Part shown: positions 1,090-12,583 of the stretch, piece by piece | Position numbering within the stretch: the stretch's first letter is position 1 | Layout: every line of letters begins with the position of its first letter | From: an uncultured bacterium | GTDB lineage: Bacteria > UBA8481 | Direction: 5' to 3' | DNA: 15,859 nucleotides | Assembly (NCBI GenBank): GCA_964637705.1 | Contig: CAZWVM010000073.1 | Coordinates: 1 to 15,859 of the forward strand | The notes under the pieces: generated by a model | Database searches by the model: none | What the model saw: only the letters and a program-made list of their open reading frames with translations | Told to the model about the DNA's origin: nothing | Position numbers and translations under genes: made by a program

Positions 1090-1394
1090 ATTACCATCCT
1101 GACGCCCACGATGAGGCGCAATTCCCGGTCGATCCGATCCATCGCCTCACGGCTCTCGACGCGCGTCGTGAAGTGGTAGCTCACGTACTTGCCGGCGCCG
1201 GAGACGTTGCCGGGAAGGAGCGGGGAGCGGACGCCCAGTTCCATGAGAATCGTCTCGATCGTGAAGTGCATGTGCGGGTGATCCTCCGCGATCACGCGGA
1301 AGTGGCAGTCGAGCGGGAAGACGAGTTCGGCCGGGCGCACGGACGGCGCGGGGCCGTCCTTCCCTGCACGCGCCCCGGCGTCGTCCCCGCTCAT
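1086..1394 (-). CDS. ybeD: YbeD/DUF493 (UPF0250) family small protein, 102 aa with a ~20-aa N-terminal extension
   Basis: The C-terminal 80 aa (LVFPLDCHFRVIAE...SGAGKYVSYHFTTRVESREAMDRIDRELRLIVGVRMVI) align with E. coli YbeD (LEFPTPFTYKVMGQ...[38 protein letters not shown]). Start is taken as ATG 1394-1392, which overlaps the giant gene's TGA (1393-1391) as ATGA. The upstream part of the 191-aa track ORF is Arg/Gly-rich out-of-frame overlap with the giant CDS and is not credible coding. The stop overlaps the fabI stop convergently. Confidence 0.7.
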   Translation of the reverse strand: MSGDDAGARAGKDGPAPSVRPAELVFPLDCHFRVIAEDHPHMHFTIETILMELGVRSPLLPGNVSGAGKYVSYHFTTRVESREAMDRIDRELRLIVGVRMVI

Positions 1395-4300
1395 CGCGGA
1401 TGGCGCGAGCGCGGCCGCCCGGCCGGCGCGGCGGGCGGAACCTTCGGCACGCCGCCCGGTCCCACGACCGGCTGGATCTTCAGGTGCATCGAGGAATAAG
1501 GCGCGAACTTGCCGTCGGGGTTCACGATCGTGAAGGGCAGGATCTCCGTGTGCGGCACCTCCAGCCCCCGGTTCGTCACGTTCAGCCACTGGAAGGTGAG
1601 GCGCGCCTGGTTCTCCGAGGTGATCTCGAACGAAAGCGCGACCTCGCCGCGTTCCACGCACGGCCGGTTCTTCGGATCCGCCGGAGGAACGTGAGTGATC
1701 GTCGAGCCGTCCCGGATGACGACGGGACGGACCTTGTCGTAGATGAAGAAGTGGGAGCCGGGACGGAATCCCGCCCCGTTCAAGGTGTAGACCCGCGGAG
1801 CGAAGCTCACCGTCTCGCCCAGCGGCAGTTCAAAGACGTCGCTGTATTCGCCCTCGAACTGGGGCGAGCCGTCCGCGGAGACGGCCGGGTAGGGCGTCTG
1901 GTCCGCGACGCTCGAGGCGGCGAGTTGGTTCGCCGTGGGCGCGGCCCCCGACGATCCCGCCGGCGCGGGAGCGGCGGCCGGCGTCGGCATCACGAAGACC
2001 TGCGGCTCCGGCATCGTGATCTGCGGCTCCACGCTCACCTGCGGCGCCTCCACGTTCACCTGCGGCGCCGTCGCCGCGGTCGCCGGGGAAGCCGTGAAGC
2101 GCAGGTCCGCGGCGAGCGCCTTCAGGGCCGCAAGCGTCTCGGGGGCGAGCGAAGTCTCCGTCCGGACCGTCTCAGCCTCGGGCTTCTTCACCATCTCCGC
2201 CGCGGTCGCGACCGCCGTCGAGAAGGCCTTCGTGATCGTCGACTGCAGGGCATCGATGCCCTCGCGGAACGAGGAGAGTTGCGCGACGACGCGGCCGACC
2301 GGGTCGGCGGGATCCCCCTGCCCCATCACCAGGTGGCGCTTGTAGGCCTTCTTGATCTCGTCCCACCGCTCCGCGTCCTTCTGCGAGAGCTTCCCGGCCA
2401 TCTCCTTGAACTTCAGGAGGTTCGCCTCCGAGCCCGTGGTCAGGGTCTGGGCCTCGTTCTTGTAGTGGTCGTACAGGAGGTCGTCGATCTCGGATTCCGT
2501 CATGATCGGCAGGACCTTCTCGGCGAGCCGATTCATGTTGCGGTAGGAGCCCTGGAGCTTGAAGGGCGGCTCGGTGCGGTAGGCCTCCGCCATCGCCGCG
2601 GAACGGATGTATTCCTGGTTCACGCGGTAGACCGTCTCGCGCACCTTGAGAAGACGCTTCATGACCTCCGTCATCTCGTTCAGTTCCTCGGGCGAGTAGT
2701 TCCCCTCCAGTTCCACCGACTCGCCGCGCCCGCTCCGCGCCAGCCGGATCACGCCCTGCACGTCCTTCTGGCTCGAGCGCGCGAGGCGGGCGAGGATGGG
2801 ATTGGAGGTGATGGAGTTCTCGAGGTAGCTGTCGCGGAACATCTCCTCGTTGTTCGAGACGACGTCGCCGAGGTTGTAGGTGTCGGCGCGGTTGGCGAGC
2901 ATGTCCGGGATGCGGAACTTCTCGCCGCTCTCGGTGTATGGGTTTCCCGCCATGACGACCATCACCTTGCGCCCCCGCAGGTCGTAGGTGCGCGGCGTTC
3001 CTCTCCAGACGCCCTCGATCCGCCGCTGGGCATCGCAGAGGGAGATGAACTTCTGGAGGAACTCGGGGTTCGTGTGCTGGATGTCGTCCACGCAGATCAT
3101 GACGTTGTCGCCCATCTCCAGGGCGAGGTTCAACTTGTTGACCTCCTCGCGCGCCGAGGCGTTGGGCGCCTCCTCGGGATCCAGCGAGAGGACGCGCTCG
3201 CCCAGGGCCGGGCCGTTCACCTTCATGAAGACGATGCCCAGCCGGTTCGCGATGTATTCCATCAAGGTCGTCTTGCCGTAGCCGGGCGGAGAGACGAGCA
3301 GGAGAAGTCCCATGCGGTCGGTCCGCTTCGCCGCGCCGACGACGCCCAGTTGCTTCGCCATGTTCGCGCCCACGAGCGGCAGGTAGAACTTGTCGATGAG
3401 CTGGTTGCGGACGAAGGTCGTCAGGACCTTGGGCATGTACTCCGCGAGCCGCAGTTCCGTCCGGCGGCGCTCGAGCAGTTCCTTCTTCATCGCGGTGTAG
3501 CGCTCGAAGGCGGGCTTCTCGACCCCCGCGAATCGCGCGAGCCGTTTCATGAACTCGTGGTAGTGGATCTCCATCCGCCCGCCGGTGATCCGCGCATGGG
3601 TGCCGATGAGGCCGTCGACGGTGACGGAGAGCGAATGCGCGGCCTCGGTCGTGACGGTGGCTCCTCGACCGAGGAGCACGACGGCGGCCTTCTCCACGAG
3701 GGCCGCGTCGTGCCTCGATCCCTCGCCCGTGCGGAAGGCCGCGAGCCAGCCGCGCACCACGGCCAGCTCCGTCCGGCGGTCGGCGCGCACCGCCTCACGC
3801 GCCGCCTCGAAATCCTTCAGCGCTCCCTTCCCTCTCAGGTTCTCCTGGAAGTCGGACAGGAAGGCCGCGACCTCGGGGCTCACGGGGAACTTCGCCCCGC
3901 CCGCGCAGAGCAATTCGAAGAGGTATTCCGCGGCCTCGCCCGCGTGCTCCTCGTCGAACCACCCGGACCGGGCGAAGGCGAGGAGCCGCGCCTGGAGGTC
4001 GCCGACCTCCGAGCGGTCGTCCCAGGCCGGGAAGAGTCGCCGCGCCGCGCCGAGCGACTTGAGGCGCGCGGCCATGAGCGCCTTCTCCTCGGCCTCGGAG
4101 GGATCCTCCCACCAGAGCCGCGCCGCCGCGCGCGCGCCCGGGGAGAACCGGAGGAGCCTCAACTCGGCGTGGAAGCGGAGGAGTTCGCGGAGGATCCGGG
4201 CGGCGTCCACGTCGTGCACGCCCTTGACGTAGCCCTCCGCGTAGCGCGGAGCCGCCGCCTCCTTCACCTTCGCCTGCCGCTCCTCGGCGGAAAGCGCGCG

Positions 4301-7114
4301 CAGGGCCTCGATCGCGTCGTCGCCCCGCGCGGCCGCCTCGCGGAGCATCTCGTAGGCGAGATACTCGGCGCGGTAGACCGCGCGGTTCTCCGAGACGATC
4401 TCCTGGTCCCAGACCTCGCGCGTCGCGAGGAATTCCGGGTCCTCCACCCTCTCGAAGTAGTTCGTTCCCGTGAGGTGGACGTGCATGGCGCCGTCCTTGA
4501 GGACGAGCGTGCAGTCGAGCGGCTGGGTGTTGACGGAGAAGGAATGGGGACCGAAGCGGATGACGTTCTCGCCCTCGGTGTAAAGCTCCAGCTTGTCCTT
4601 GATCTGCCTCACGGCGTCCTGCTGGATCGTCTTCAACCGGCCGAGGACCTCGTCGGCCCGGACCGTGTCCTCGATCTCCGTGAGCTTCGCGGCCGTGTCG
4701 CGCGCCTTCTCGACCATGAGGTCGGAGGCGAACCAGGCGTTGAGCTCGTCGAGCGACTTGAAGCTCATCGCCCTGTTGCGGATCCCGGCGAGGATCCGGT
4801 CCGCGGTCTCGGCGAGCGCGTTGGCGCGCTTCTGCCGCGCCTCGGCCAGCTGGACCTTGCGCGTCGAGAAGGCGGAGTAGATCTCCTCGCGCTTCGCGCC
4901 GAGCTGCGTCACGAACTCGTCGAAGTCCGCGAACCGCCCCTCCAGCTCCTCGACCTGCACCATCAGCTTCGTCAGGTACTCGTCGCACTTCTGCGTCGTG
5001 TCGCAGAGGTCGATGAAGTTGGTGACGGCCTGGCCGAGGAGCTTCAACTGGGCCCCGAACTGGGCCGCGCCCTCGACGGAGGAGAGGTCGCGGCGGCGGC
5101 CCCTCACCAGCGACTTGACCTGGTTCAGGGTGGCGTAGATCGTCGAGATGGAGTCGATGATCCGCGTCGATTCGGTCGCGTCCTCGATCTTCAGCCCGCC
5201 CACGATCTCGATGAGCATCTCGAGCTCGCCCGCCGCCTTCCCGATCTCCTCCTCCGCCCTCGTGGCGTCGACGACCTTCGCGATCCCCGCCACGCCGCCC
5301 CGGAAGGACTCCGCCCGATCGGCGTATGGCTTGAGCGCGGCAGGCTCGAGGAGGAATTTCACGCAGAGCTGCGAGAGCCGGTCCGCGTGCTCGATGACCT
5401 GGGTCTCCATGGCCTGGAGGCGCGCCGCGTCGATGTAGCGGACGTCGCGCGCCGAGACGATCTCGCCCCGGAGAGCCCTCAAGCCCGAGAGGTGCCCGAC
5501 GAAGACGTCGATCGAAGGGAGATTGTGGTAGTCGATCGCGCCCGCGCGATCCTTGAGCTTCGCTTCCAGGGCGTTCAGCGCCTCGCGGGCGTTGCGTTTC
5601 AGTCGCGAGACCTTCTCGAACTCTTCGATCGCCGCCGCCGCCGCGTCGCGGATCCCCGCGAGGGGCGCGGAGAGGTCGCCGATCTCCCCTTCACCCAGCC
5701 AGAAGTAGGTATCGAGGATGGTGGAGGTCTTCCGGACCAGGTCGAGGTAAAGACCGCCGTAGGTGTCCTCCTTCCGGCAGAGCGTCAGCACCTCGAAGCA
5801 CTCCGACATCGCGTTGACGACCGCGGAGTTTCCGACCTTGAAGAGGAAGGAATCGGTCTTGGCCTCCGTGACGACGTTGGAGCCGAGGAAGGGCGTGCGC
5901 CAGACCTGGAGCGCGTGGTGCTTCTGGGGCTCGACGGGCGAGCGGAAGAGGATCATCTCGCCGTTCTCGAAGACCGAGAAGCCGTTGCAGATGATCGGCG
6001 TCTTCACCTTCTGCTCGATGCGGTTGTACGCCAGCAGGATATCGACACCCGTCTCGCGGTTCAGGAAGTCGTAGAGGTAATCCTCGCCGTTCGGGGCGTC
6101 GACGCGCGCGGCATAGACCATGTCCGTGAACTCGTTCTCGAAGATCTTGTACTCGCCCGTCTGCAAGTAATAGCCGTGGGCGAAGATGATGCCGTGCCCG
6201 TCGGGCAGGAGGACGCAGGCCTTCTCGATGTCGTCGATCCGGCGGACCTCCTTCACCTTCTCGCTGTAGACGAGGTAGCGGAATTGTTTCTCCTGGAAGG
6301 GGCGGATCTTGAGGATCACGAGGGCGTCGAGGATCGCGTAGTAGATCTCCGCGTCGTCGAGCGTCTGGTCCCGGTTCTCGACCGGCTCGGAGTAGATGCC
6401 CTCGCCGCTCTCGGTGTTGTCCTCGATCTTGACGGTCAGGTCGCCGCCGAGGCACTCCACGAAGACGCGGTCCTCGATCGAGACGTGCGGGAAGCGACCG
6501 GCCCTGTGGTAATCCCTGACGGCCCGCTTCCACTCGAACTCGTGCTGGGGCGGGTACTTGAACTCGTGGTCGCTCCGGTTGTCGAGATACTGGATCCCCC
6601 GCTCGTCGATCGCCCACTTGAAGACCTTCAGGTCGGAGAGGGACTTGCCGACCTGGAAGGCCATGTAGAGGAACGGCCCGATCACGCGGAAGGCCGAGAA
6701 GGTCGACTCGCGGTAGTACTTGTAGAGTTCCTTGAAGTCGGACTCGAAATCCCCCGACTTCAAGGGATCGAGCGGCTCCTCGTGGAACATCCGCCCGCGA
6801 TACGAGTAGATCGAGAAGACGTCCTCGAGCTTCGTCTCGGTCTTCAGCCCCATCCGGACGTTGTAGCCGAAGAGGAACCTGTTCCCGCCCAGGGGCACCA
6901 TGTCCCTCGGCACGCAGTTGTTCGGAGTCGTGATGCGCTCGGTCCCCAGGAGCGTGAACTCGATCGCGCCGAAGACGTCCCGCCGCTTCGCGTTGAGGAT
7001 CTCGAGGCGCTCGGAGAGCGACTCCGCGTGAGTCGCGAGGCGCTGGCGGAGGATCTCGTAGGTGCCGGTCTCCAAGCCGCCCGGTCGAGCGGTGACGGGC
7101 GCGCTTTCAGCCAC
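1391..7114 (-). CDS. giant (1907 aa) hypothetical protein with a single central MoxR/dynein-like (AAA_5-type) P-loop ATPase module, a Pro/Gln/Val-rich linker and a C-terminal ~150-aa globular domain
   Basis: Long ORF with normal amino-acid composition; the opposite-strand 2067-aa ORF is Arg/Leu/Gly-biased junk. Walker A is LLLLVSPPGYGKTTL (K~1281). Walker B is NVMICVDDIQH (D1343-D1344), about 62 aa later. A sensor-1-like VMVVMAGNPYTESGEKFRIPDMLANRADTYNL parallels the MoxR ATQNP..E.G...LPEA.LDRF pattern. The start is GTG 7114, 53 nt after the flotillin stop. No other domain was recognised in the ~1240 N-terminal residues. Confidence 0.85.
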   Translation of the reverse strand: MAESAPVTARPGGLETGTYEILRQRLATHAESLSERLEILNAKRRDVFGAIEFTLLGTERITTPNNCVPRDMVPLGGNRFLFGYNVRMGLKTETKLEDVFSIYSYRGRMFHEEPLDPLKSGDFESDFKELYKYYRESTFSAFRVIGPFLYMAFQVGKSLSDLKVFKWAIDERGIQYLDNRSDHEFKYPPQHEFEWKRAVRDYHRAGRFPHVSIEDRVFVECLGGDLTVKIEDNTESGEGIYSEPVENRDQTLDDAEIYYAILDALVILKIRPFQEKQFRYLVYSEKVKEVRRIDDIEKACVLLPDGHGIIFAHGYYLQTGEYKIFENEFTDMVYAARVDAPNGEDYLYDFLNRETGVDILLAYNRIEQKVKTPIICNGFSVFENGEMILFRSPVEPQKHHALQVWRTPFLGSNVVTEAKTDSFLFKVGNSAVVNAMSECFEVLTLCRKEDTYGGLYLDLVRKTSTILDTYFWLGEGEIGDLSAPLAGIRDAAAAAIEEFEKVSRLKRNAREALNALEAKLKDRAGAIDYHNLPSIDVFVGHLSGLRALRGEIVSARDVRYIDAARLQAMETQVIEHADRLSQLCVKFLLEPAALKPYADRAESFRGGVAGIAKVVDATRAEEEIGKAAGELEMLIEIVGGLKIEDATESTRIIDSISTIYATLNQVKSLVRGRRRDLSSVEGAAQFGAQLKLLGQAVTNFIDLCDTTQKCDEYLTKLMVQVEELEGRFADFDEFVTQLGAKREEIYSAFSTRKVQLAEARQKRANALAETADRILAGIRNRAMSFKSLDELNAWFASDLMVEKARDTAAKLTEIEDTVRADEVLGRLKTIQQDAVRQIKDKLELYTEGENVIRFGPHSFSVNTQPLDCTLVLKDGAMHVHLTGTNYFERVEDPEFLATREVWDQEIVSENRAVYRAEYLAYEMLREAAARGDDAIEALRALSAEERQAKVKEAAAPRYAEGYVKGVHDVDAARILRELLRFHAELRLLRFSPGARAAARLWWEDPSEAEEKALMAARLKSLGAARRLFPAWDDRSEVGDLQARLLAFARSGWFDEEHAGEAAEYLFELLCAGGAKFPVSPEVAAFLSDFQENLRGKGALKDFEAAREAVRADRRTELAVVRGWLAAFRTGEGSRHDAALVEKAAVVLLGRGATVTTEAAHSLSVTVDGLIGTHARITGGRMEIHYHEFMKRLARFAGVEKPAFERYTAMKKELLERRRTELRLAEYMPKVLTTFVRNQLIDKFYLPLVGANMAKQLGVVGAAKRTDRMGLLLLVSPPGYGKTTLMEYIANRLGIVFMKVNGPALGERVLSLDPEEAPNASAREEVNKLNLALEMGDNVMICVDDIQHTNPEFLQKFISLCDAQRRIEGVWRGTPRTYDLRGRKVMVVMAGNPYTESGEKFRIPDMLANRADTYNLGDVVSNNEEMFRDSYLENSITSNPILARLARSSQKDVQGVIRLARSGRGESVELEGNYSPEELNEMTEVMKRLLKVRETVYRVNQEYIRSAAMAEAYRTEPPFKLQGSYRNMNRLAEKVLPIMTESEIDDLLYDHYKNEAQTLTTGSEANLLKFKEMAGKLSQKDAERWDEIKKAYKRHLVMGQGDPADPVGRVVAQLSSFREGIDALQSTITKAFSTAVATAAEMVKKPEAETVRTETSLAPETLAALKALAADLRFTASPATAATAPQVNVEAPQVSVEPQITMPEPQVFVMPTPAAAPAPAGSSGAAPTANQLAASSVADQTPYPAVSADGSPQFEGEYSDVFELPLGETVSFAPRVYTLNGAGFRPGSHFFIYDKVRPVVIRDGSTITHVPPADPKNRPCVERGEVALSFEITSENQARLTFQWLNVTNRGLEVPHTEILPFTIVNPDGKFAPYSSMHLKIQPVVGPGGVPKVPPAAPAGRPRSRHPR
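1995..2070 (-). repeat. about 4 imperfect tandem copies of an 18-21-nt unit (ctgcggc[tg]cc...) encoding the PQV-rich linker (APQVNVEAPQVSVEPQITMPEPQVFVMP) of the giant protein
   Basis: ctgcgg recurs at about 2000, 2021, 2039 and 2060. The encoded peptide is low complexity and Pro/Ala/Val/Gln-rich. Confidence 0.5.
2855..3400 (-). other. AAA+ (MoxR/McrB/dynein-clade) ATPase module of the giant protein. P-loop codons lie at about 3266-3292 and Walker B codons at about 3074-3097
   Basis: SPPGYGKTT and VDDIQH motifs read from the translation. These codon positions are frame-consistent with the 7114 start. Confidence 0.7.
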
Positions 7115-7167: not shown

Positions 7168-9093
7168 TCAGCCCTTCTTCCCCAGGACGTTCTCCAGCAG
7201 TTCCTGCGCGATGCCGGACTTGGCCTCGTCCTTGCCGCCCTTCAGGAGCGCGCGGGCCTCGGTGAGAACCTGGCTGGAATCGACCGCCCGGTCGACGGCC
7301 TTGCCCGCGGTGATCGCGTTGACGATCCGGTCGAAGAACTGCGTCTCGCCGCCGACGATGTCGACCTTGGCGTTGGAGAGCGCCTCGCCCAGGACCTTGG
7401 CCTGGCTCTCCGCGACGTCCTTGCGGATGCCGATCTCCGCGAGCGCGACGTCCTTCTCGACGTTGAGCCTCAGCTTGAACTCCTCGTGCTGGCGCCCCGC
7501 CTCGTGGAAGAGCTTCATGGCCTCGGCCTTCTTCGTGATCCCGTCCGCCTCGGCCTTGAACTTGAGCTGGGCCACCGAGGCCTCGGTCTCGCCCTGCTTC
7601 TGAAGCGCCGCCGCCTTCGCGCCGATGACGTTGGCCTCCGCCAGCCCCGACGCGGCCTGTTCCGCGGTCACGCCCTCCGCGAGGGCCTTCTTCCCGACCG
7701 CGATCTTGATGCTGGCGTTCTGCTCGCCCTCGGCCTCGATCACTTCCTGCTCGGCCTCGAGCTCCGCGGCCTTTTTCGCGGCCTCCGCCGCCTTCAAGCG
7801 GACGATCATGTCCTGGTCGGCCTTCAATTCCGCCGCCTTCTTCGCCGCCTCCGCGGCCTTCACGTTCTTGACGACCGCCTGCTCCGCCTCGGCCTCGGCC
7901 ATCGTCAGCATGACCTTCTTCTCGCGCTCGGCGGTCGCGAAGGCCTCGGTGTCCTTCACCCTCTGTTCCTCGGCCACCACGTCCTTCTGGACCATGACCC
8001 GGGCGCGGATGACCTCCTGGATGTTCTTCTGCTCGGTCTCCACCGCCTTGGTCTTCTCGATCGTGGCGAGCGAGGTGATCTTCTCGCGCTCGATGTCCTC
8101 CAACTGGCGGTCCTTCTCGACGCGCACCTTCTCCACGGCGTCCGTGCGCTCGCGGTTGCGCGCCGCCACGATGACCTGCCGGTTCTTGTTCTCCTCCGAG
8201 ACCTGGATCTCCTCGTCCGAGGCGATCCGCGCCTTCTCGTGCTTCAACCTCTGCTCCTGCTGGAACTTGATCGTCTCGGCCTCTTCCCGCGCCTTGATCG
8301 AGGCGACCTCGCGCATCTGCTTCTGCTCGGCCTCCGCCAGTTGGCGATTCTGCTCGAGGATGATCTCGCGGGTCTCGACGTCCTTCTTGTTGATCTCCCG
8401 CTCCTTGTCGCGGTTCCGCTCGTTGGTGAGGACCGCCTGCGCGGCGGTGCGCTCGGTGATCAGCTTGATGCCCTCGGCGTCGAGGATGTTGTTCGGATCG
8501 AGCTTCTCGACCTTGGACTGCTCGAGGATGTCGATGGCCGCGTCGTCGAGGACGTAGCCGTTGAGATCGGTGCCGACGTGGCGCTTGATCGCCTCGCGGA
8601 ACTCCGCGCGCTTGTTCAGGAGATCCTCGAAGTTGAAGTCGCGCCCGGCCGTTTTCAGGGCGTCCGAGAACTTCGGCTCGAAGAGTTCGGCCAGGACCTG
8701 GGGATCGGAGGCGCGCACGCAGCCGAGCGTCTGCGCCACCATCTTCACGTGCTCGGGAAGCTTGGAGTCCACGCGGATGTAGAAGGTGACCTTGATGTCG
8801 GCACGGAGGTTGTCCTTGCAGATGAGGCCGGTCGAGCCCTCGCGATGGATCTCCACGCGCTTCACGCTGATGTCCATCATCTCGAGCCGGTGCACGATCG
8901 GGAAGACGAAGATGCCCGAGTCGAAGGAGATCTGGATGCCGCCCACGCCCGTTCGGACGAGCGCCTGACCCTGCTGGGGAATCCGGTAGGTCCAGCCGAT
9001 GATGAGCCGCAGGATTCCATACAACACGGCGAAGCCCACGAGAGCCGCCAGGACCATGCCGATGGCGGAAACGATCCAGGTGATGATTTCCAT
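7168..9093 (-). CDS. flotillin-like SPFH/band-7 domain protein (FloT/YqiK type). It has an N-terminal TM helix, an SPFH domain, and a long Ala/Glu/Lys-rich coiled coil
   Basis: 641 aa. The N-terminus is MEIITWIVSAIGMVLAALVGFAVLYGIL (TM). The SPFH core is KDNLRADIKVTFYIRV...NFEDLLNKRAEFREAIKRHV. The C-terminal half carries KAAEAAKKAAEL-type EA repeats. An AAAGGGG SD-like run lies 7-9 nt before ATG 9093. The alternative-frame 863-aa ORF is Arg/Gly junk. Confidence 0.9.
   Translation of the reverse strand: MEIITWIVSAIGMVLAALVGFAVLYGILRLIIGWTYRIPQQGQALVRTGVGGIQISFDSGIFVFPIVHRLEMMDISVKRVEIHREGSTGLICKDNLRADIKVTFYIRVDSKLPEHVKMVAQTLGCVRASDPQVLAELFEPKFSDALKTAGRDFNFEDLLNKRAEFREAIKRHVGTDLNGYVLDDAAIDILEQSKVEKLDPNNILDAEGIKLITERTAAQAVLTNERNRDKEREINKKDVETREIILEQNRQLAEAEQKQMREVASIKAREEAETIKFQQEQRLKHEKARIASDEEIQVSEENKNRQVIVAARNRERTDAVEKVRVEKDRQLEDIEREKITSLATIEKTKAVETEQKNIQEVIRARVMVQKDVVAEEQRVKDTEAFATAEREKKVMLTMAEAEAEQAVVKNVKAAEAAKKAAELKADQDMIVRLKAAEAAKKAAELEAEQEVIEAEGEQNASIKIAVGKKALAEGVTAEQAASGLAEANVIGAKAAALQKQGETEASVAQLKFKAEADGITKKAEAMKLFHEAGRQHEEFKLRLNVEKDVALAEIGIRKDVAESQAKVLGEALSNAKVDIVGGETQFFDRIVNAITAGKAVDRAVDSSQVLTEARALLKGGKDEAKSGIAQELLENVLGKKG
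7735..7866 (-). repeat. in-frame tandem duplication (~66 nt, 22 aa) inside the flotillin coiled coil. KAAEAAKKAAELKADQDMIVRL is followed by KAAEAAKKAAELEAEQEVIEAE
   Basis: Two near-identical DNA copies (gcggcctttttcgcggcctccgccgccttca and gccgccttcttcgccgcctccgcggccttca) lie about 66 nt apart. Coordinates are approximate. Confidence 0.5.
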
Positions 9094-9174: not shown

Positions 9175-10890
9175 TTATGTCAACGTCTTTGAAGCGACGA
9201 CGGTTCCCTCCCGCGATTCCTCGACCGTCAGCGAGGCGATCGCGGACGACAGTCCGATCTCCCAGGAGGCCGACTCCCCCCCGCGCCGGTCGATGACCGA
9301 AAGCACGACCGGGATCTCGGAGGGGTCGGAGAGCCCGTTCAGGTGGACCGAGCCGAAGAAGACGGCGACGCCCTCGAACGCCAGCGTCCGCGCCTCGGCG
9401 AGAGCGCGCTCGACCTGGGTCCGGGCCTGGAGAACGGCCACGAGCAGGGGGCGCGCAGCCTCGCCGCAACCCCGGATCTCGTCCAGGTCGCGGCCGGAGA
9501 GCGTGGCCGCCACGTCCGCGATGCGCGGGATCGCGTGGTCGCCCTCGAGAACCGCCCGCAGTGCGCCGCAGCAGTGAGACTCCCGGCCGTAGCGGTCCAT
9601 GCATCCGTAGACCCGCCGACCCTCCTTCTCCATCACGCCGCAATGCGACTGGAGACGCGCGATGAGCGCGAGCGTCCCGCCACCATCGAAGTGGCGGGCC
9701 GCGATGGAGAGCGATCCGGGTTCGTAGCATCCGCCGCGGTTGGAGGTGACGACCGCCGAGCCGCGGCCCTCGGACAGGGCGGGCAGCATCAGGCCCACGC
9801 CGCTCCGGGCGAAGCGCACCCGCGAATCCTGCTCCGCTTCGTCGGTGCAGGTCACGTGCAGGGCCCCCACGCGATCACAGGCGAAGTACCGGACGAGCGC
9901 CGCCAGGAGCACGTTCGTCCGGAAGAGAGGCGTCTCGCGTCCGATCACGGCACGGATGCGTTTCTCGAGGAACCGGTCAGACAAAAGGCCCGGCGCGCCT
10001 GCGCACCGGTTCGGGAACCGCGACGCCGGGGTGCTCGGCGCGGAGATCGTCGCGGCGACGGAGACGTCGGCGGCGGAGAGGATGCGCGCCGGCTCCAGGG
10101 TGGGGCCGGCCATCGGCTTCTTCTCGAGCGCGGCGGCCGCGGCGGCGGGAGCCATGACGTCCATGCGGGGCGCGTCGACCGGGCCAGTCTCGGAGGTGGC
10201 GACGTGCGGCGGCGCATGAGGATCCTCGGGGACCACCGCCCGCGCCGCCTCCAGGGACTCCTGGACGCGCTCGTGAATCTCGTTCGGATCCAGCCGTCCC
10301 TTCTTCGCGTCGTCCCAGACCTCCCCGAGGTCCTGCGATGCCTTCCTCGCCATCTCCTCGATCGCCGCACGGCCCTCGTCGTACTGCTTCCTGAGGACAC
10401 CGGTCACGTCGACGACCTGTTCCGCGATCGTCGCCTCCGGCCTAGCCGCCGCGGCCGCGGCCGGCGAGAACTCGCCGAGGAGATCCCTCACCGCCGAGGC
10501 CACCTCGTCCGGCTTCGCCTTCCCGCGCGCCGCCGCCTCGATCTGGGACTTCACCCACTCGGCGCGCCTCAGGACATTCTCGCGTTTCTCCTTCAGCCGG
10601 TCCTCGCCGTCGGAGAGGAGGTCCTTCACCTCGGCGGCCGTCTCCGTCCAGTCAGGCGCTTCACCGCGCTTCGACGCGGTTCGCGCCGCCACGCGAGCCA
10701 AGACGTCGGGCTGATCTTTCAGTTCGCCGAGAGCGTCGTTGATCAGGGCGCGGAGCGCCTTGCGATTCTGCTTGCGGAAGAGCGGCAGCAGGGTCTCGGC
10801 CGCGCCCTTCGTCTCGAAGGAATCGTGGAGGGTGCGCGCCTGCTCGAGAAGCGACTCGAGAGCCGAGGACTCAACCGGATTCGTTCTCAC
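9175..10890 (-). CDS. hypothetical protein (571 aa) with an N-terminal alpha-helical/coiled-coil region, a Pro/Ala-rich linker and a Cys/His-rich C-terminal domain
   Basis: ORF with plausible composition; the opposite-strand 665-aa ORF is Arg-rich junk. The GTG start at 10890 overlaps the upstream gene's TGA as GTGA. C-terminal Cys pattern: FAC, TCT, GGCYEPG, SHCG, YGCMD, SHCCG, RGCGE. No family recognised. No TM segment, so it is not NfeD. The 5' end is uncertain because few in-frame Met are present. Confidence 0.6.
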   Translation of the reverse strand: MRTNPVESSALESLLEQARTLHDSFETKGAAETLLPLFRKQNRKALRALINDALGELKDQPDVLARVAARTASKRGEAPDWTETAAEVKDLLSDGEDRLKEKRENVLRRAEWVKSQIEAAARGKAKPDEVASAVRDLLGEFSPAAAAAARPEATIAEQVVDVTGVLRKQYDEGRAAIEEMARKASQDLGEVWDDAKKGRLDPNEIHERVQESLEAARAVVPEDPHAPPHVATSETGPVDAPRMDVMAPAAAAAALEKKPMAGPTLEPARILSAADVSVAATISAPSTPASRFPNRCAGAPGLLSDRFLEKRIRAVIGRETPLFRTNVLLAALVRYFACDRVGALHVTCTDEAEQDSRVRFARSGVGLMLPALSEGRGSAVVTSNRGGCYEPGSLSIAARHFDGGGTLALIARLQSHCGVMEKEGRRVYGCMDRYGRESHCCGALRAVLEGDHAIPRIADVAATLSGRDLDEIRGCGEAARPLLVAVLQARTQVERALAEARTLAFEGVAVFFGSVHLNGLSDPSEIPVVLSVIDRRGGESASWEIGLSSAIASLTVEESREGTVVASKTLT

Positions 10891-11381
10891 CGGGCCTCAA
10901 ACTCCGCCGGTGGCCTCTTCGCGATGACCTCCTCGAGCAGGGCCGCGATCCGGTCCAGCCGATCGATGATCCTGTTATCGGCGGGCGGAAGAAGTTCACG
11001 GGTGCCTCGCTGTTGCACGCCCTCCGCCACGGCCAGTCCCTGCATGGCCGGGCCGATGCCCATGACCAGGCCGAGGATGTACTTGCCGAGGGGCGTCACC
11101 GCCCCTCCCCCGTCGGAGACCGCGGCGATGCATGTGCTGACGGTCCAGAAGGCGTCCGCGAAGGACGTGACCCGGGGATTCCGATCCTCTTCGGCGAGAA
11201 AGAAAAGGATCGAGCCGGCCAGAGTCGCCGTCATGATGCTGTCGATCGGACGCTCCGAGACGTGGCGCACCGCGAGTTCCTTGAGCATGGGAGAAGAAGA
11301 ACCGGGCGCGGGCGTCGGCCGCGAACCCGTGACGGCGTAAAGGAGATCTCCGGTCAGACCATCGAGAAAGGACTCCGCCAT
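10887..11381 (-). CDS. small two-TM pore-loop ion-channel homologue (KcsA-like fold) with a non-canonical selectivity filter
   Basis: 164 aa from ATG 11381. A perfect GGAGGA SD lies at about 11394-11389, 7 nt upstream; the track ORF's GTG at 11387 is less likely. The layout is TM1 (SIMTATLAGSILFFLAE), a pore helix (SFADAFWTVSTCIAAV, compare KcsA YPRALWWSVETATTV), a filter position reading SDGGG instead of GYGD, and TM2 (GKYILGLVMGIGPAMQGLAVA). Confidence 0.7.
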   Translation of the reverse strand: MAESFLDGLTGDLLYAVTGSRPTPAPGSSSPMLKELAVRHVSERPIDSIMTATLAGSILFFLAEEDRNPRVTSFADAFWTVSTCIAAVSDGGGAVTPLGKYILGLVMGIGPAMQGLAVAEGVQQRGTRELLPPADNRIIDRLDRIAALLEEVIAKRPPAEFEAR

Positions 11382-11425
11382 GGTCACATCCTCCCCAACC
11401 CGCCCCGCCTCGGGTCTCCGGGGGG

Positions 11426-11454
11426 AATCTCCGGGAGAAGACTCATTCTGTCAA
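11426..11454 (-). promoter_or_regulatory. candidate sigma70-type promoter of the five-gene minus-strand cluster. Perfect -35 TTGACA (11454-11449), 17-nt spacer, weak -10 GAGATT (11431-11426)
   Basis: Read from sequence. It lies in the 173-nt divergent intergenic region, about 45 nt upstream of the SD/ATG of the channel gene. The -10 is poor, so this is tentative. Confidence 0.3.
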
Positions 11455-11534
11455 CGTGAAACGCCCGGTCGGGAGCGCGCCTGTTCACATGAGTCGCCGG
11501 CATTTCTAGCGTGCACCCGCCCCGGGCGATCGAG

Positions 11535-11564
11535 TTGACGGCGCCCGGTGCGCCGTGGTCCAAT
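11535..11564 (+). promoter_or_regulatory. candidate promoter of the RCK-channel gene. -35 TTGACG (11535-11540), 18-nt spacer, TGg + TCCAAT (11556-11564), then 8 nt to ATG 11573. Possibly leaderless
   Basis: Read from sequence. No SD precedes ATG 11573. Confidence 0.3.
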
Positions 11565-11572
11565 CCTCGCCG

Positions 11573-12583
11573 ATGACCTCATTGCGCGCGCGCCTCGTCT
11601 ACGCCCGGATCCTCTGGAAGGAATTCCGCGCTTCGATACTCGCCTTCATCGCGGTCCTCGCGCTCGGCACCCTCGCCACGCACGCTCTCTACGACATCGC
11701 GCCCCTCAGCCTGCCCGAGGCGCTCTGGGGCACCTTCACGCTCATCTTCTTCCAGCCGTCCCTCGCCTTTCCCCGTCACCCCGCGCTCGAGGCCGTCTTC
11801 TTCCTCATTCCCGTCGTCAGCTTCCTCATGGTCGTCGAGGGTTTCCTGCGCTTCGGCGCTCTCGTCGTCAACCGCAACCAGAACCCGGAGGTGTGGAACA
11901 TGGCCCTGGCCCAGTCCTTCGAGAATCACGTCGTGATCGCCGGCATGGGAAAGATCGGGCTCCGCGCCGCCCGACTGCTCCTCGACGACGGCGAGCGCCT
12001 GGTCTGCGTGGAGAAGAACCCGGAATCGCTGCCGCGGACGGAGTTCGAGGAGCGCGGGGCGGCCCTGATCACCGGCAACATCCTCGCCGACGACGTCTTC
12101 CGCAAGGTTCACGTGGAGAAGGCCAAGTGCTTCATGGCCTGCACCGACGACGACCTCGTCAACTTCGAGTCGGCGCTGAAGGCGCGCGCGGTCAACCCCG
12201 GCATCCGCGTGGTGCTGCGTCTCTTCAACGACAAGCTGGCGTCCCAGATGGAATCGAACTTCAACATCTCGATCGTCTACAGCTCCTCCGCCCTCGCCGC
12301 GCCCTCCTTCGCCTCCGCGGTCTACTCCAAGAACATCAAGGACTCCTTCGTGATCGACCACGAGCGTTTCTGCCTCCTGCACTGCCTCGTCGACGCGGTG
12401 TCGCCGTTTTGCGGCCTGGTACACGCGGACGTGGAGCGGCAGTTCGAGGCGACGATCGTGGTGCACAAGGATTCCGCGAAGAGGAAGAAGCCCGGGGATC
12501 CGCAGACGCCGGTCGAAGAGGGAGACAACCTCATCCTCATCGTTCCCTTCCGCGTGGTGAAGGCAAAGGCGGGACGGATCTAG
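11573..12583 (+). CDS. MthK-like 2TM + RCK (TrkA-N / TrkA-C) ion-channel family protein with a degenerate pore signature
   Basis: The N-terminal TM pair flanks a pore-loop-like LPEALWGTFTLIFFQPS (MthK: SLYWTFVTIATVGYGD). The TrkA-N Rossmann motif is HVVIAGMGKIGLRAARLLLDDGERLVCVEKNPE. The TrkA-C-like C-terminus is DNLILIVPFRVVKA. The track ORF begins at GTG 11555; ATG 11573 is preferred (see the promoter note). Confidence 0.8.
   Translation: MTSLRARLVYARILWKEFRASILAFIAVLALGTLATHALYDIAPLSLPEALWGTFTLIFFQPSLAFPRHPALEAVFFLIPVVSFLMVVEGFLRFGALVVNRNQNPEVWNMALAQSFENHVVIAGMGKIGLRAARLLLDDGERLVCVEKNPESLPRTEFEERGAALITGNILADDVFRKVHVEKAKCFMACTDDDLVNFESALKARAVNPGIRVVLRLFNDKLASQMESNFNISIVYSSSALAAPSFASAVYSKNIKDSFVIDHERFCLLHCLVDAVSPFCGLVHADVERQFEATIVVHKDSAKRKKPGDPQTPVEEGDNLILIVPFRVVKAKAGRI

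Follow-up and report, generated by a model that had tools for sequence, protein, structure and literature searches.

The question raised by the locus described here is what two potassium (K+) channel-fold proteins that lack a K+ selectivity filter are doing beside a bacterial flotillin gene. The locus lies in a 15,859-nucleotide (nt) stretch of DNA from an uncultured bacterium (GTDB lineage Bacteria; UBA8481; GenBank assembly GCA_964637705.1, contig CAZWVM010000073.1), which was analysed at its full length and is called the window below. In the window, the gene for a KcsA-like protein of 164 amino acids (aa), referred to as the small protein, is the first gene of a minus-strand cluster that also encodes a 571-aa soluble protein, a flotillin and an AAA+ ATPase with a DUF3686 domain. 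The gene for an MthK-like protein with two transmembrane (TM) helices and an RCK domain, referred to as the RCK protein, is transcribed divergently from it. The original prediction for this DNA was made from the letters of the sequence and described the two divergent channel-fold genes; both gene calls were confirmed by NCBI, and an exact-sequence lookup found NCBI calls identical to all five gene products. It further suggested that the two proteins form one system organised by the flotillin. We conclude that the small gene probably encodes a mini KcsA-like protein, strongly diverged within a family whose members are operon partners of bacterial flotillin. The most interesting outcome, a flotillin-linked family with stepwise loss of the filter, lies outside the framing of that prediction.

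Fold and family of the small protein

Searches with the single sequence are nearly blind to the small protein, and an exhaustive HMMER search was required to find its relatives. Searched alone, the small protein has no match in Pfam, Ion_trans_2 included. The archaeal K+ channel model of NCBIfam (K_channel_Meth) is reached at an E-value of 1.3e-4, which is far below the cut-off, and phmmer matches to Kv, KvAP and KCNQ chains of the PDB are marginal (E 0.16-1.5). A word-indexed search of 5.8 billion proteins returned a single homologue (P0002, 47% identity), and the exhaustive HMMER search with a two-sequence profile returned 163 relatives at E < 1e-3. Family members range from 100 to 200 aa in length, with the common motif AE+G+NPKV.S..DAL.F.STCLSVGY.D.FA.TP.GK.I....MT.GPA. 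Pfam Ion_trans_2 is matched by 45 of 50 chosen members, and a profile built from 50 members finds KvAP at 2e-13 and KcsA at 1e-9. By these profile matches the family is homologous to K+ channel pores.

The AlphaFold2 (AF2) model of the small protein is a monomer built on 50 family sequences, with a predicted local distance difference test (pLDDT) score of 85.8. It contains two N-terminal helices, TM1 (residues 45-64), a pore helix (74-86), a loop of ten residues (87-96), TM2 (97-126) and a C-terminal helix (136-155). The top Foldseek matches in the PDB are KcsA entries, including the full-length model, with target-normalised TM-scores of ~0.66-0.79. The C-terminal helix, RLDRIAALLEEV, is kept across the family and aligns with the bundle segment RFDRLERMLDD of KcsA, and the TM2 glycine (G110) is invariant in the family. 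The predicted fold is KcsA-like, with TM1, pore helix, loop and TM2 followed by the C-terminal helix; the KcsA-like layout named in the original prediction agrees with both the helix order of the model and the Foldseek matches.

The filter loop

The whole sequence of the small protein was checked for GYG and none was found. In alignments made with hmmalign and MAFFT, T74-T-V-G-Y-G-D80 of KcsA lies opposite I85-A-A-V-S-D-G91 of the small protein. This register is anchored without a gap by the flanking TC and TP.GK, which match T72 and T85..G88-R89 of KcsA. The small protein therefore reads G77V, Y78S and G79D in the profile register, and both filter glycines and the tyrosine are gone. The absence of TVGYG had been recognised correctly in the original prediction; its placement of AVSDG opposite TVGYG is off by one residue, given this gapless anchoring. 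The analogy that it drew with the TVGDG filter of NaK holds only if the loop is shifted, as AVSDG resembles xVxDG only when moved by one residue and the segment reads AAVSD in the profile register. A NaK-like reading of this filter demands that one-residue shift, which is unsupported by the profile alignments, and was rejected.

In four members of the clade to which the small protein belongs (the window's protein, P0002, P0030 and that of locus L090), the 17-residue loop C84-K100 has 15 invariant positions, at an overall identity of ~46%. The filter of the clade is AAVSD[G/A]GG. On this alignment the degenerate loop is tightly conserved and not decaying. The filter of the family is mostly SVGY[A/S/D/C]D, in which S-V-G-Y is kept, and the position of the second glycine is occupied by alanine (50), serine (41), aspartate (18) or glycine (14) (n=151). 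The family alignment indicates that the filter has degenerated stepwise on a conserved scaffold, from GYG to GYA, GYS or GYD and then to AAVSD. This natural series on one scaffold is useful for asking what role the K+ channel fold has once selectivity is lost. Judged by its filter residues, the clade of the small protein cannot be a classical K+-selective channel, since both glycines are required in the canonical K+ filter.

Linkage of the family to flotillin operons

The genomic context of the family was examined in a metagenome scan seeded only on peptide patterns of the small protein, which returned 74 loci. More sensitive flotillin and YqiJ-like queries were then added and duplicates were dropped, giving 76 distinct small-family genes, 58 of which are in evaluable loci (those with ≥400 nt of upstream or ≥1500 nt of downstream flank). 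A same-strand flotillin gene adjoins the channel gene in 45 of the 58 evaluable non-redundant loci, and two further loci end just past a YqiJ-like gene. The linkage to flotillin thus recurs across dozens of unrelated metagenomes. Members with the canonical SVGYGD filter are also linked to flotillin (13/16 evaluable loci); therefore the linkage predates the filter changes. The small-protein family is, on this synteny, a recurrent and apparently undescribed member of bacterial flotillin operons.

Three gene orders are found. The commonest (order A) is YqiJ-like, flotillin, channel, in which the upstream gene matches Pfam YqiJ_N at 2e-8 to 6e-6; in Tepidisphaeraceae (L166 and L167) a YqiJ_N protein is followed by a Band_7 protein (644 aa) and the channel (141 aa). 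Order B is channel, YqiJ-like, flotillin, DUF3686-AAA+ (L105, L142, L151, L163-L165, plus partial contigs). In the metagenome-assembled genomes (MAGs) of Myxococcales (L163-L165) it consists of the channel (148 aa), a 266-aa protein with three TM helices, a Band_7 protein (667 aa) and a DUF3686/DUF7902 protein (~1860 aa). Order C, which is YqiJ-like, flotillin, channel, DUF3686, is that of L090, the closest flotillin-linked relative of the window's small protein (filter IAAVSDA). Among the other closest relatives, L085 has flotillin followed by the channel, and the gene directly upstream of P0030 on a 1-kb contig encodes a flotillin C-terminus that is 52% identical to the window's flotillin. 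The ~270-aa protein of orders B and C has the layout of YqiJ (N-terminal TM helix, acidic spacer, two TM helices and a C-terminal beta-rich domain), with weak profile support. The window has order B with the 571-aa soluble protein replacing the YqiJ-like protein, and this one gene separates the small-channel gene from the flotillin gene; no YqiJ-like open reading frame (ORF) was found in the window.

Two side observations concern these operons. In those of order B, which contain DUF3686, the channel filter is mostly SVGYSD or SVGYCD, and in those of order A it is SVGYGD, SVGYAD or SVGYDD. In the Myxococcales loci the gene divergent from the channel operon (4903-5838, minus strand) encodes a TerB-domain protein with weak DUF533 and DUF697 matches.

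A second scan was made for the DUF3686 domain with one genome per species, and its closest 80 loci are mostly from Verrucomicrobiota, Planctomycetota and Bacteroidota MAGs. In 71 of the 80 the gene directly preceding DUF3686 encodes a flotillin orthologue, mostly across a gap of under 150 nt. This extremely conserved pair of flotillin followed by DUF3686-AAA+ (L005-L084) spans Verrucomicrobiota, Planctomycetota, Bacteroidota, Myxococcota, Bacillota and others. A first-pass view, taken from P0002 and these 80 loci, placed the small gene outside the flotillin cluster and was overturned by the scan seeded on the small protein. That scan lends strong support to the original statement that the small gene heads the flotillin/AAA cluster.

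The RCK protein

The RCK protein matches TrkA_N at E 4e-17, and no match to Pfam Ion_trans_2 was found in it. Its AF2 model, which was built on 26 homologues, has a pLDDT of 90.9 and a predicted TM-score (pTM) of 0.80. In the model TM1 is followed by a pore helix at residues 47-58, a loop at 59-69 and TM2 at 70-103; a linker helix then leads to the Rossmann domain, and a further lobe forms the C-terminus. Foldseek ranks full-length MthK (6u68, E 4e-13 over 327 aligned columns) and GsuK highest, in keeping with the original statement that the protein aligns along its whole length to MthK. The closest RCK domains are those of RCK-pore-RCK proteins, several of which have T[VI]GYGD or TTGFGD.

In a joint alignment the pore helices are in line and FQPSL lies opposite TIGYG of P0010, P0023 and P0025; the loop after FQPSL is three residues shorter than in these canonical relatives. 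Here the earlier register, with a pore loop lacking TVGYG, stands. LIFFQP[ST]L.FP is kept in the closest homologues (59-63% identity) and F-[Q/E]-x4-[F/Y]-P in more distant members of the clade. When the N-terminal 118 residues of the clade were compared with canonical pores using hhalign, a weak match was obtained (probability 24%, E 8.5e-4) that holds its register through TM1 and the pore helix and ends exactly at the filter; the fold assignment of this part draws mainly on the AF2 model and Foldseek. From sequence and model, the RCK protein probably descends from MthK-like channels and is a membrane protein regulated by nucleotides, with a hydrophobic loop replacing the filter. It adds a second and independent example of filter loss, in a small clade of MthK-like proteins.

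Seven RCK-pore-RCK relatives (P0012, P0018, P0019, P0021, P0022, P0024 and P0026) also have non-canonical loops, which include STELG, NAFGD, TALGN, AGSSPD and GAGGQE/GAGGNE. It seems from these loops that filter loss happened repeatedly in RCK-bearing channel-fold proteins. Inside the RCK gene (11887-11902, plus strand), the ATG of Met110, which lies shortly in front of the RCK domain, is preceded by GGAGG at a distance of 8 nt, and the same GGAGG-N8-ATG is found in a 63%-identical homologue (L004, gene 10001-11065). The arrangement recalls the internal start of MthK (M107), which yields the soluble RCK for the gating ring. It may be coincidental since the bases also encode a conserved E-V-W.

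Proposed function and its alternatives

K+ channel pore domains tetramerise, and KcsA-type proteins have both termini in the cytoplasm, where the SPFH and coiled-coil parts of bacterial flotillins lie as well. Large SPFH cages enclose dedicated clients (HflK/C with FtsH), and animal stomatin-family proteins tune ion channels. By analogy, the small protein would tetramerise through its pore domain and a C-terminal helix bundle, its cytoplasmic ends would face the cytoplasmic flotillin assembly, and its role towards the flotillin/AAA+ module would be that of a client or partner in the membrane, like FtsH in the HflK/C cage and the stomatin-controlled channels. The conserved C-terminal helix is the likely bundle and contact site. 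The AAA+ ATPase could remodel the assembly of flotillin and small protein, and flotillin and ATPase together could control the activity or the placement of the pore during envelope stress. In its fullest form the proposal is put forward tentatively: a dedicated KcsA-like channel subunit in flotillin operons, a prokaryotic counterpart of the SPFH-controlled ion channels, would form a tetrameric pore under or inside the flotillin assembly and be released or remodelled by the DUF3686-AAA+ ATPase. With a filter that evolved away from K+ selectivity, it may act as a stress-triggered cation leak or a membrane-state sensor. As to conduction, we lean slightly towards a pore that still passes cations without K+ selectivity, with a ring of Asp90, over an inert scaffold, given the conservation of pore helix, loop and TM2 glycine.

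The alternative that survives best, itself rather unlikely, is a non-conducting scaffold: the small protein would be a tetramer that anchors the flotillin/AAA+ machine in the membrane or serves it as an adaptor, and it would pass no ions. G77V, Y78S and G79D replace both glycines and the tyrosine, and the loss of the second glycine is tolerated in ~90% of the family, so that K+ selectivity is seemingly not under selection; what the family retains is the fold, the C-terminal helix and the linkage to flotillin. A pure anchor, however, has no need of a conserved pore helix or an invariant TM2 glycine. The invariance of the loop among proteins of such low overall identity also argues against a scaffold, as does the retention of S-V-G-Y, the inner ion-site ligands, by most family members.

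Several observations weigh against a flotillin-linked pore that conducts. G77V is incompatible with the canonical filter backbone, which makes a closed or collapsed pore quite possible. P0002 (L001), a close relative, sits among unrelated genes with no adjacent flotillin, the TVG-[ST]D group (L086, L106) has no adjacent flotillin, and further stand-alone members are found (L108, L121, L168); these exceptions occur despite ample flanks. A small-family channel gene is contained in none of the 80 closest DUF3686 loci, and for this reason the channel is regarded as an optional accessory and not a core part. Beside P0002, at 3597-6934 of L001, a weak 250-aa Band_7 protein followed by a HrpB-type helicase is encoded on the same strand 3.5 kb upstream; the Band_7 protein may be a remnant of an SPFH linkage or an alternative one.

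Much less probable is the model of the original prediction, in which the head-to-head pair is co-regulated or hetero-assembled into a flotillin-organised, RCK-regulated non-selective conductance. The two genes are adjacent and divergent and both proteins are filterless, and two channel-fold genes side by side, both of rare fold types, are a priori improbable by chance alone. The adjacency is real in the window and absent from every other locus examined. No RCK-clade gene was found in the 76 small-family loci or in the 80 closest DUF3686 loci, and neither a small channel nor a flotillin was found at five RCK-clade loci (including L004, L170, L171 and L172). P0004, the closest RCK homologue, has neither nearby; the neighbours of P0004, P0005, P0006 and P0009 are unrelated and differ from one relative to the next, namely a GAF-HD protein, an ABC ATPase, a PEP-utilising enzyme with a methyltransferase, and RNase T. 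The Myxococcales have the TerB-domain gene as divergent neighbour instead, and the two pore domains come from different subfamilies with loops that differ in length. A shared control region in the intergenic region was considered and rejected: no sigma-70-like promoter and no convincing operator-like repeat was seen, only short GC-rich repeats, in scans that are weak for a 67% GC non-model genome. Taken from these neighbourhoods, the head-to-head placement is most likely incidental, since no other locus examined combines an RCK-clade gene with the small channel or with flotillin, and the RCK gene probably stands outside the flotillin cluster. The case against RCK linkage is thin in the nearest relatives since, of the AAVSD-clade loci, L001 alone extends far enough upstream to reveal an RCK neighbour.

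Hardly credible is a flotillin linkage that arose from shared genome neighbourhood in a few related lineages and has no functional meaning, with the small protein an ordinary stand-alone leak channel: stand-alone members exist (L001, L106, L108, L121, L168) and most loci come from soil and freshwater metagenomes with taxa that are unassigned and possibly related, but the linkage survives three gene orders, spans two flotillin subtypes (phmmer E ~1e-40 vs ~1e-130 to the window's flotillin) and occurs in Planctomycetota (Tepidisphaeraceae), Myxococcales and unassigned contigs, and adjacency that is rearranged yet retained is the usual mark of functional coupling.

Gene layout of the window

The GC content is 65-70% across the window, and the region is flanked by genes for FabI, a ROK kinase and MoaA. 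The features are collected in Table 1.

Table 1. Coordinates of the genes, domains and filter segments discussed in the text (positions of the whole window).
Feature	Position	Strand	Basis
1907-aa gene: DUF3686, DUF7902 and AAA+ ATPase domain	1391..7114	minus	PF12458 E 3e-177, PF25472, AAA_5/AAA
641-aa flotillin gene: N-terminal TM helix, SPFH/Band_7 domain, long coiled coil	7168..9093	minus	Band_7 E 1.6e-13
571-aa soluble protein gene (P0181), no family assignment	9175..10890	minus	gene call, profile searches
Small-protein gene, 164 aa, KcsA-like (P0001)	10887..11381	minus	NCBI call; AF2; Foldseek; family profile
C-terminal cytoplasmic helix of the small protein, residues 136-155, RLDRIAALLEEV	10917..10976	minus	AF2 secondary structure and alignments
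Degenerate filter codons A86-A-V-S-D90, at the position of KcsA T75-V-G-Y-G79	11112..11126	minus	hmmalign and MAFFT with KcsA
Divergent intergenic region	11382..11572		promoter and repeat scans
MthK-like gene with two TM helices and RCK domain (P0003), 336 aa	11573..12583	plus	TrkA_N, AF2, Foldseek
Lost-filter codons F60-Q-P-S-L64 of the RCK protein, opposite TIGYG	11750..11764	plus	alignment with canonical relatives
TrkA_N (RCK Rossmann) domain, GxGxxG intact as GMGKIG	11930..12256	plus	Pfam; sequence reading

The NCBI start of the RCK gene at 11573 gives a protein of 336 aa and an intergenic gap of 191 nt, and the GTG at 11555 that had been used earlier gives 342 aa and 173 nt. In the sequence GTGA, the GTG start of the 571-aa gene shares bases with the stop of the small-protein gene, which suggests that the two proteins are co-translated in the source organism. 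A short minus-strand ORF at ~1086-1400, directly downstream of the DUF3686-AAA+ gene, ends in a sequence that looks YbeD/DUF493-like by eye (…FRVIAEDHPHMHFTIETILMELG…VESREAMDRIDRELRLIVGVRMVI); the minus-strand cluster may end with this ORF.

The 571-aa protein has no Pfam or NCBIfam family and no relative in the PDB, and no similarity was found to the YqiJ-like proteins that hold the same slot in related operons. Its only homologue found is in the closest locus of the DUF3686 scan (L005, 5599-7245), directly downstream of the DUF3686 gene. From these two positions it seems to be an accessory of the flotillin/AAA+ module whose place can vary. PADLOC gave no defence-system match for the proteins of the cluster, only marginal P-loop matches of the AAA+ protein (E ~1e-3), and the reading of the cluster as an anti-phage defence system was rejected on that result.

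Flotillin operons in the literature

A study by Ravi et al. (2024) described operons of flotillin, an AAA+ ATPase with coiled coil and beta-propeller, and YqiJ/YuaF, sometimes joined to CesT/Tir-PspA, and proposed the assembly of membrane-linked complexes under envelope stress (PMC11237479). The Band_7 and DUF3686/DUF7902/AAA genes of the window follow the conserved gene order of this known operon, and we infer that the 1907-aa protein is the 'novel AAA+ ATPase with coiled-coil and beta-propeller' of that study, with DUF3686 as the beta-propeller region. A potassium channel occurs there only in a separate, polyamine-linked operon, and no channel-fold partner of flotillin is named (PMC11237479). 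Channels are not mentioned by Hinderhofer et al. (2009), who examined the evolution of prokaryotic SPFH proteins. In the literature searched, outside which most subscription journals lie, no description of a channel gene within a flotillin or NfeD operon was found, nor was a paper that names DUF3686. The core flotillin/AAA+/YqiJ operon is already known, and the channel-fold partner appears to be unreported in the literature searched.

The clients of bacterial flotillins are a long-standing open question; of the many proposed, few have genes that accompany that of the flotillin. A channel-fold partner from the same operon would offer a concrete candidate with a genetic link to flotillin.

Comparison with known systems

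KcsA of Streptomyces lividans is similar in size and shares with the small protein its topology, the turret motif LAER, a pore helix of similar length and a segment from filter to TM2 of equal length (TATTVGYGDLYPVTLWGR vs TCIAAVSDGGGAVTPLGK), and the C-terminal helix aligns with its bundle. Unlike KcsA, the small protein has AAVSD for TVGYG, two extra N-terminal helices, a conserved Gly-Pro at the hinge of TM2 and a gene in a flotillin operon. NaK of Bacillus cereus (TVGDG) and the pores of cyclic nucleotide-gated (CNG) type resemble the small protein in the K+ channel fold, a shortened or altered filter and an acidic loop residue. The small protein differs from NaK in reading AAVSD and not xVGDG in the profile register, and no NaK-family chain is among the top 50 Foldseek matches listed for it.

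The RCK protein aligns structurally with MthK and GsuK along its whole length and shares with them TrkA_N with GxGxxG, a TrkA_C-like lobe and a conserved internal methionine just before the RCK domain. It differs from them in having FQPSL for TVGYG, a following loop that is three residues shorter and no Pfam Ion_trans_2 match. CASTOR, POLLUX and DMI1 are RCK channels of the plant nuclear envelope with a non-GYG filter (ADxGNHA-type), more TM helices and tandem RCK domains. They are like the RCK protein in combining a channel fold and RCK without GYG, and unlike it in being eukaryotic, with a filter unrelated to F-Q-P-S-L.

Compared with the flotillin operons of Ravi et al. (PMC11237479), Escherichia coli yqiJK and Bacillus subtilis yuaF-floT, the window has flotillin and DUF3686-AAA+ in the conserved order. 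It differs from the operons of Ravi et al. in having the 571-aa protein in place of YqiJ-like and PspA/CesT genes.

SPFH proteins are paired in bacteria as HflK/C-FtsH and QmcA-YbbJ, and proteins of stomatin type are paired as MEC-2/MEC-4, stomatin/ASIC and STOML3/Piezo. In these systems, as proposed for the window, an SPFH protein goes with a dedicated membrane protein, and the eukaryotic partners are ion channels. The bacterial partner proposed here would differ in being a KcsA-like tetramer, and no account of such a partner was found in the literature searched. If the proposal is true, the small channel would link bacterial flotillins to the eukaryotic theme of SPFH-controlled ion channels.

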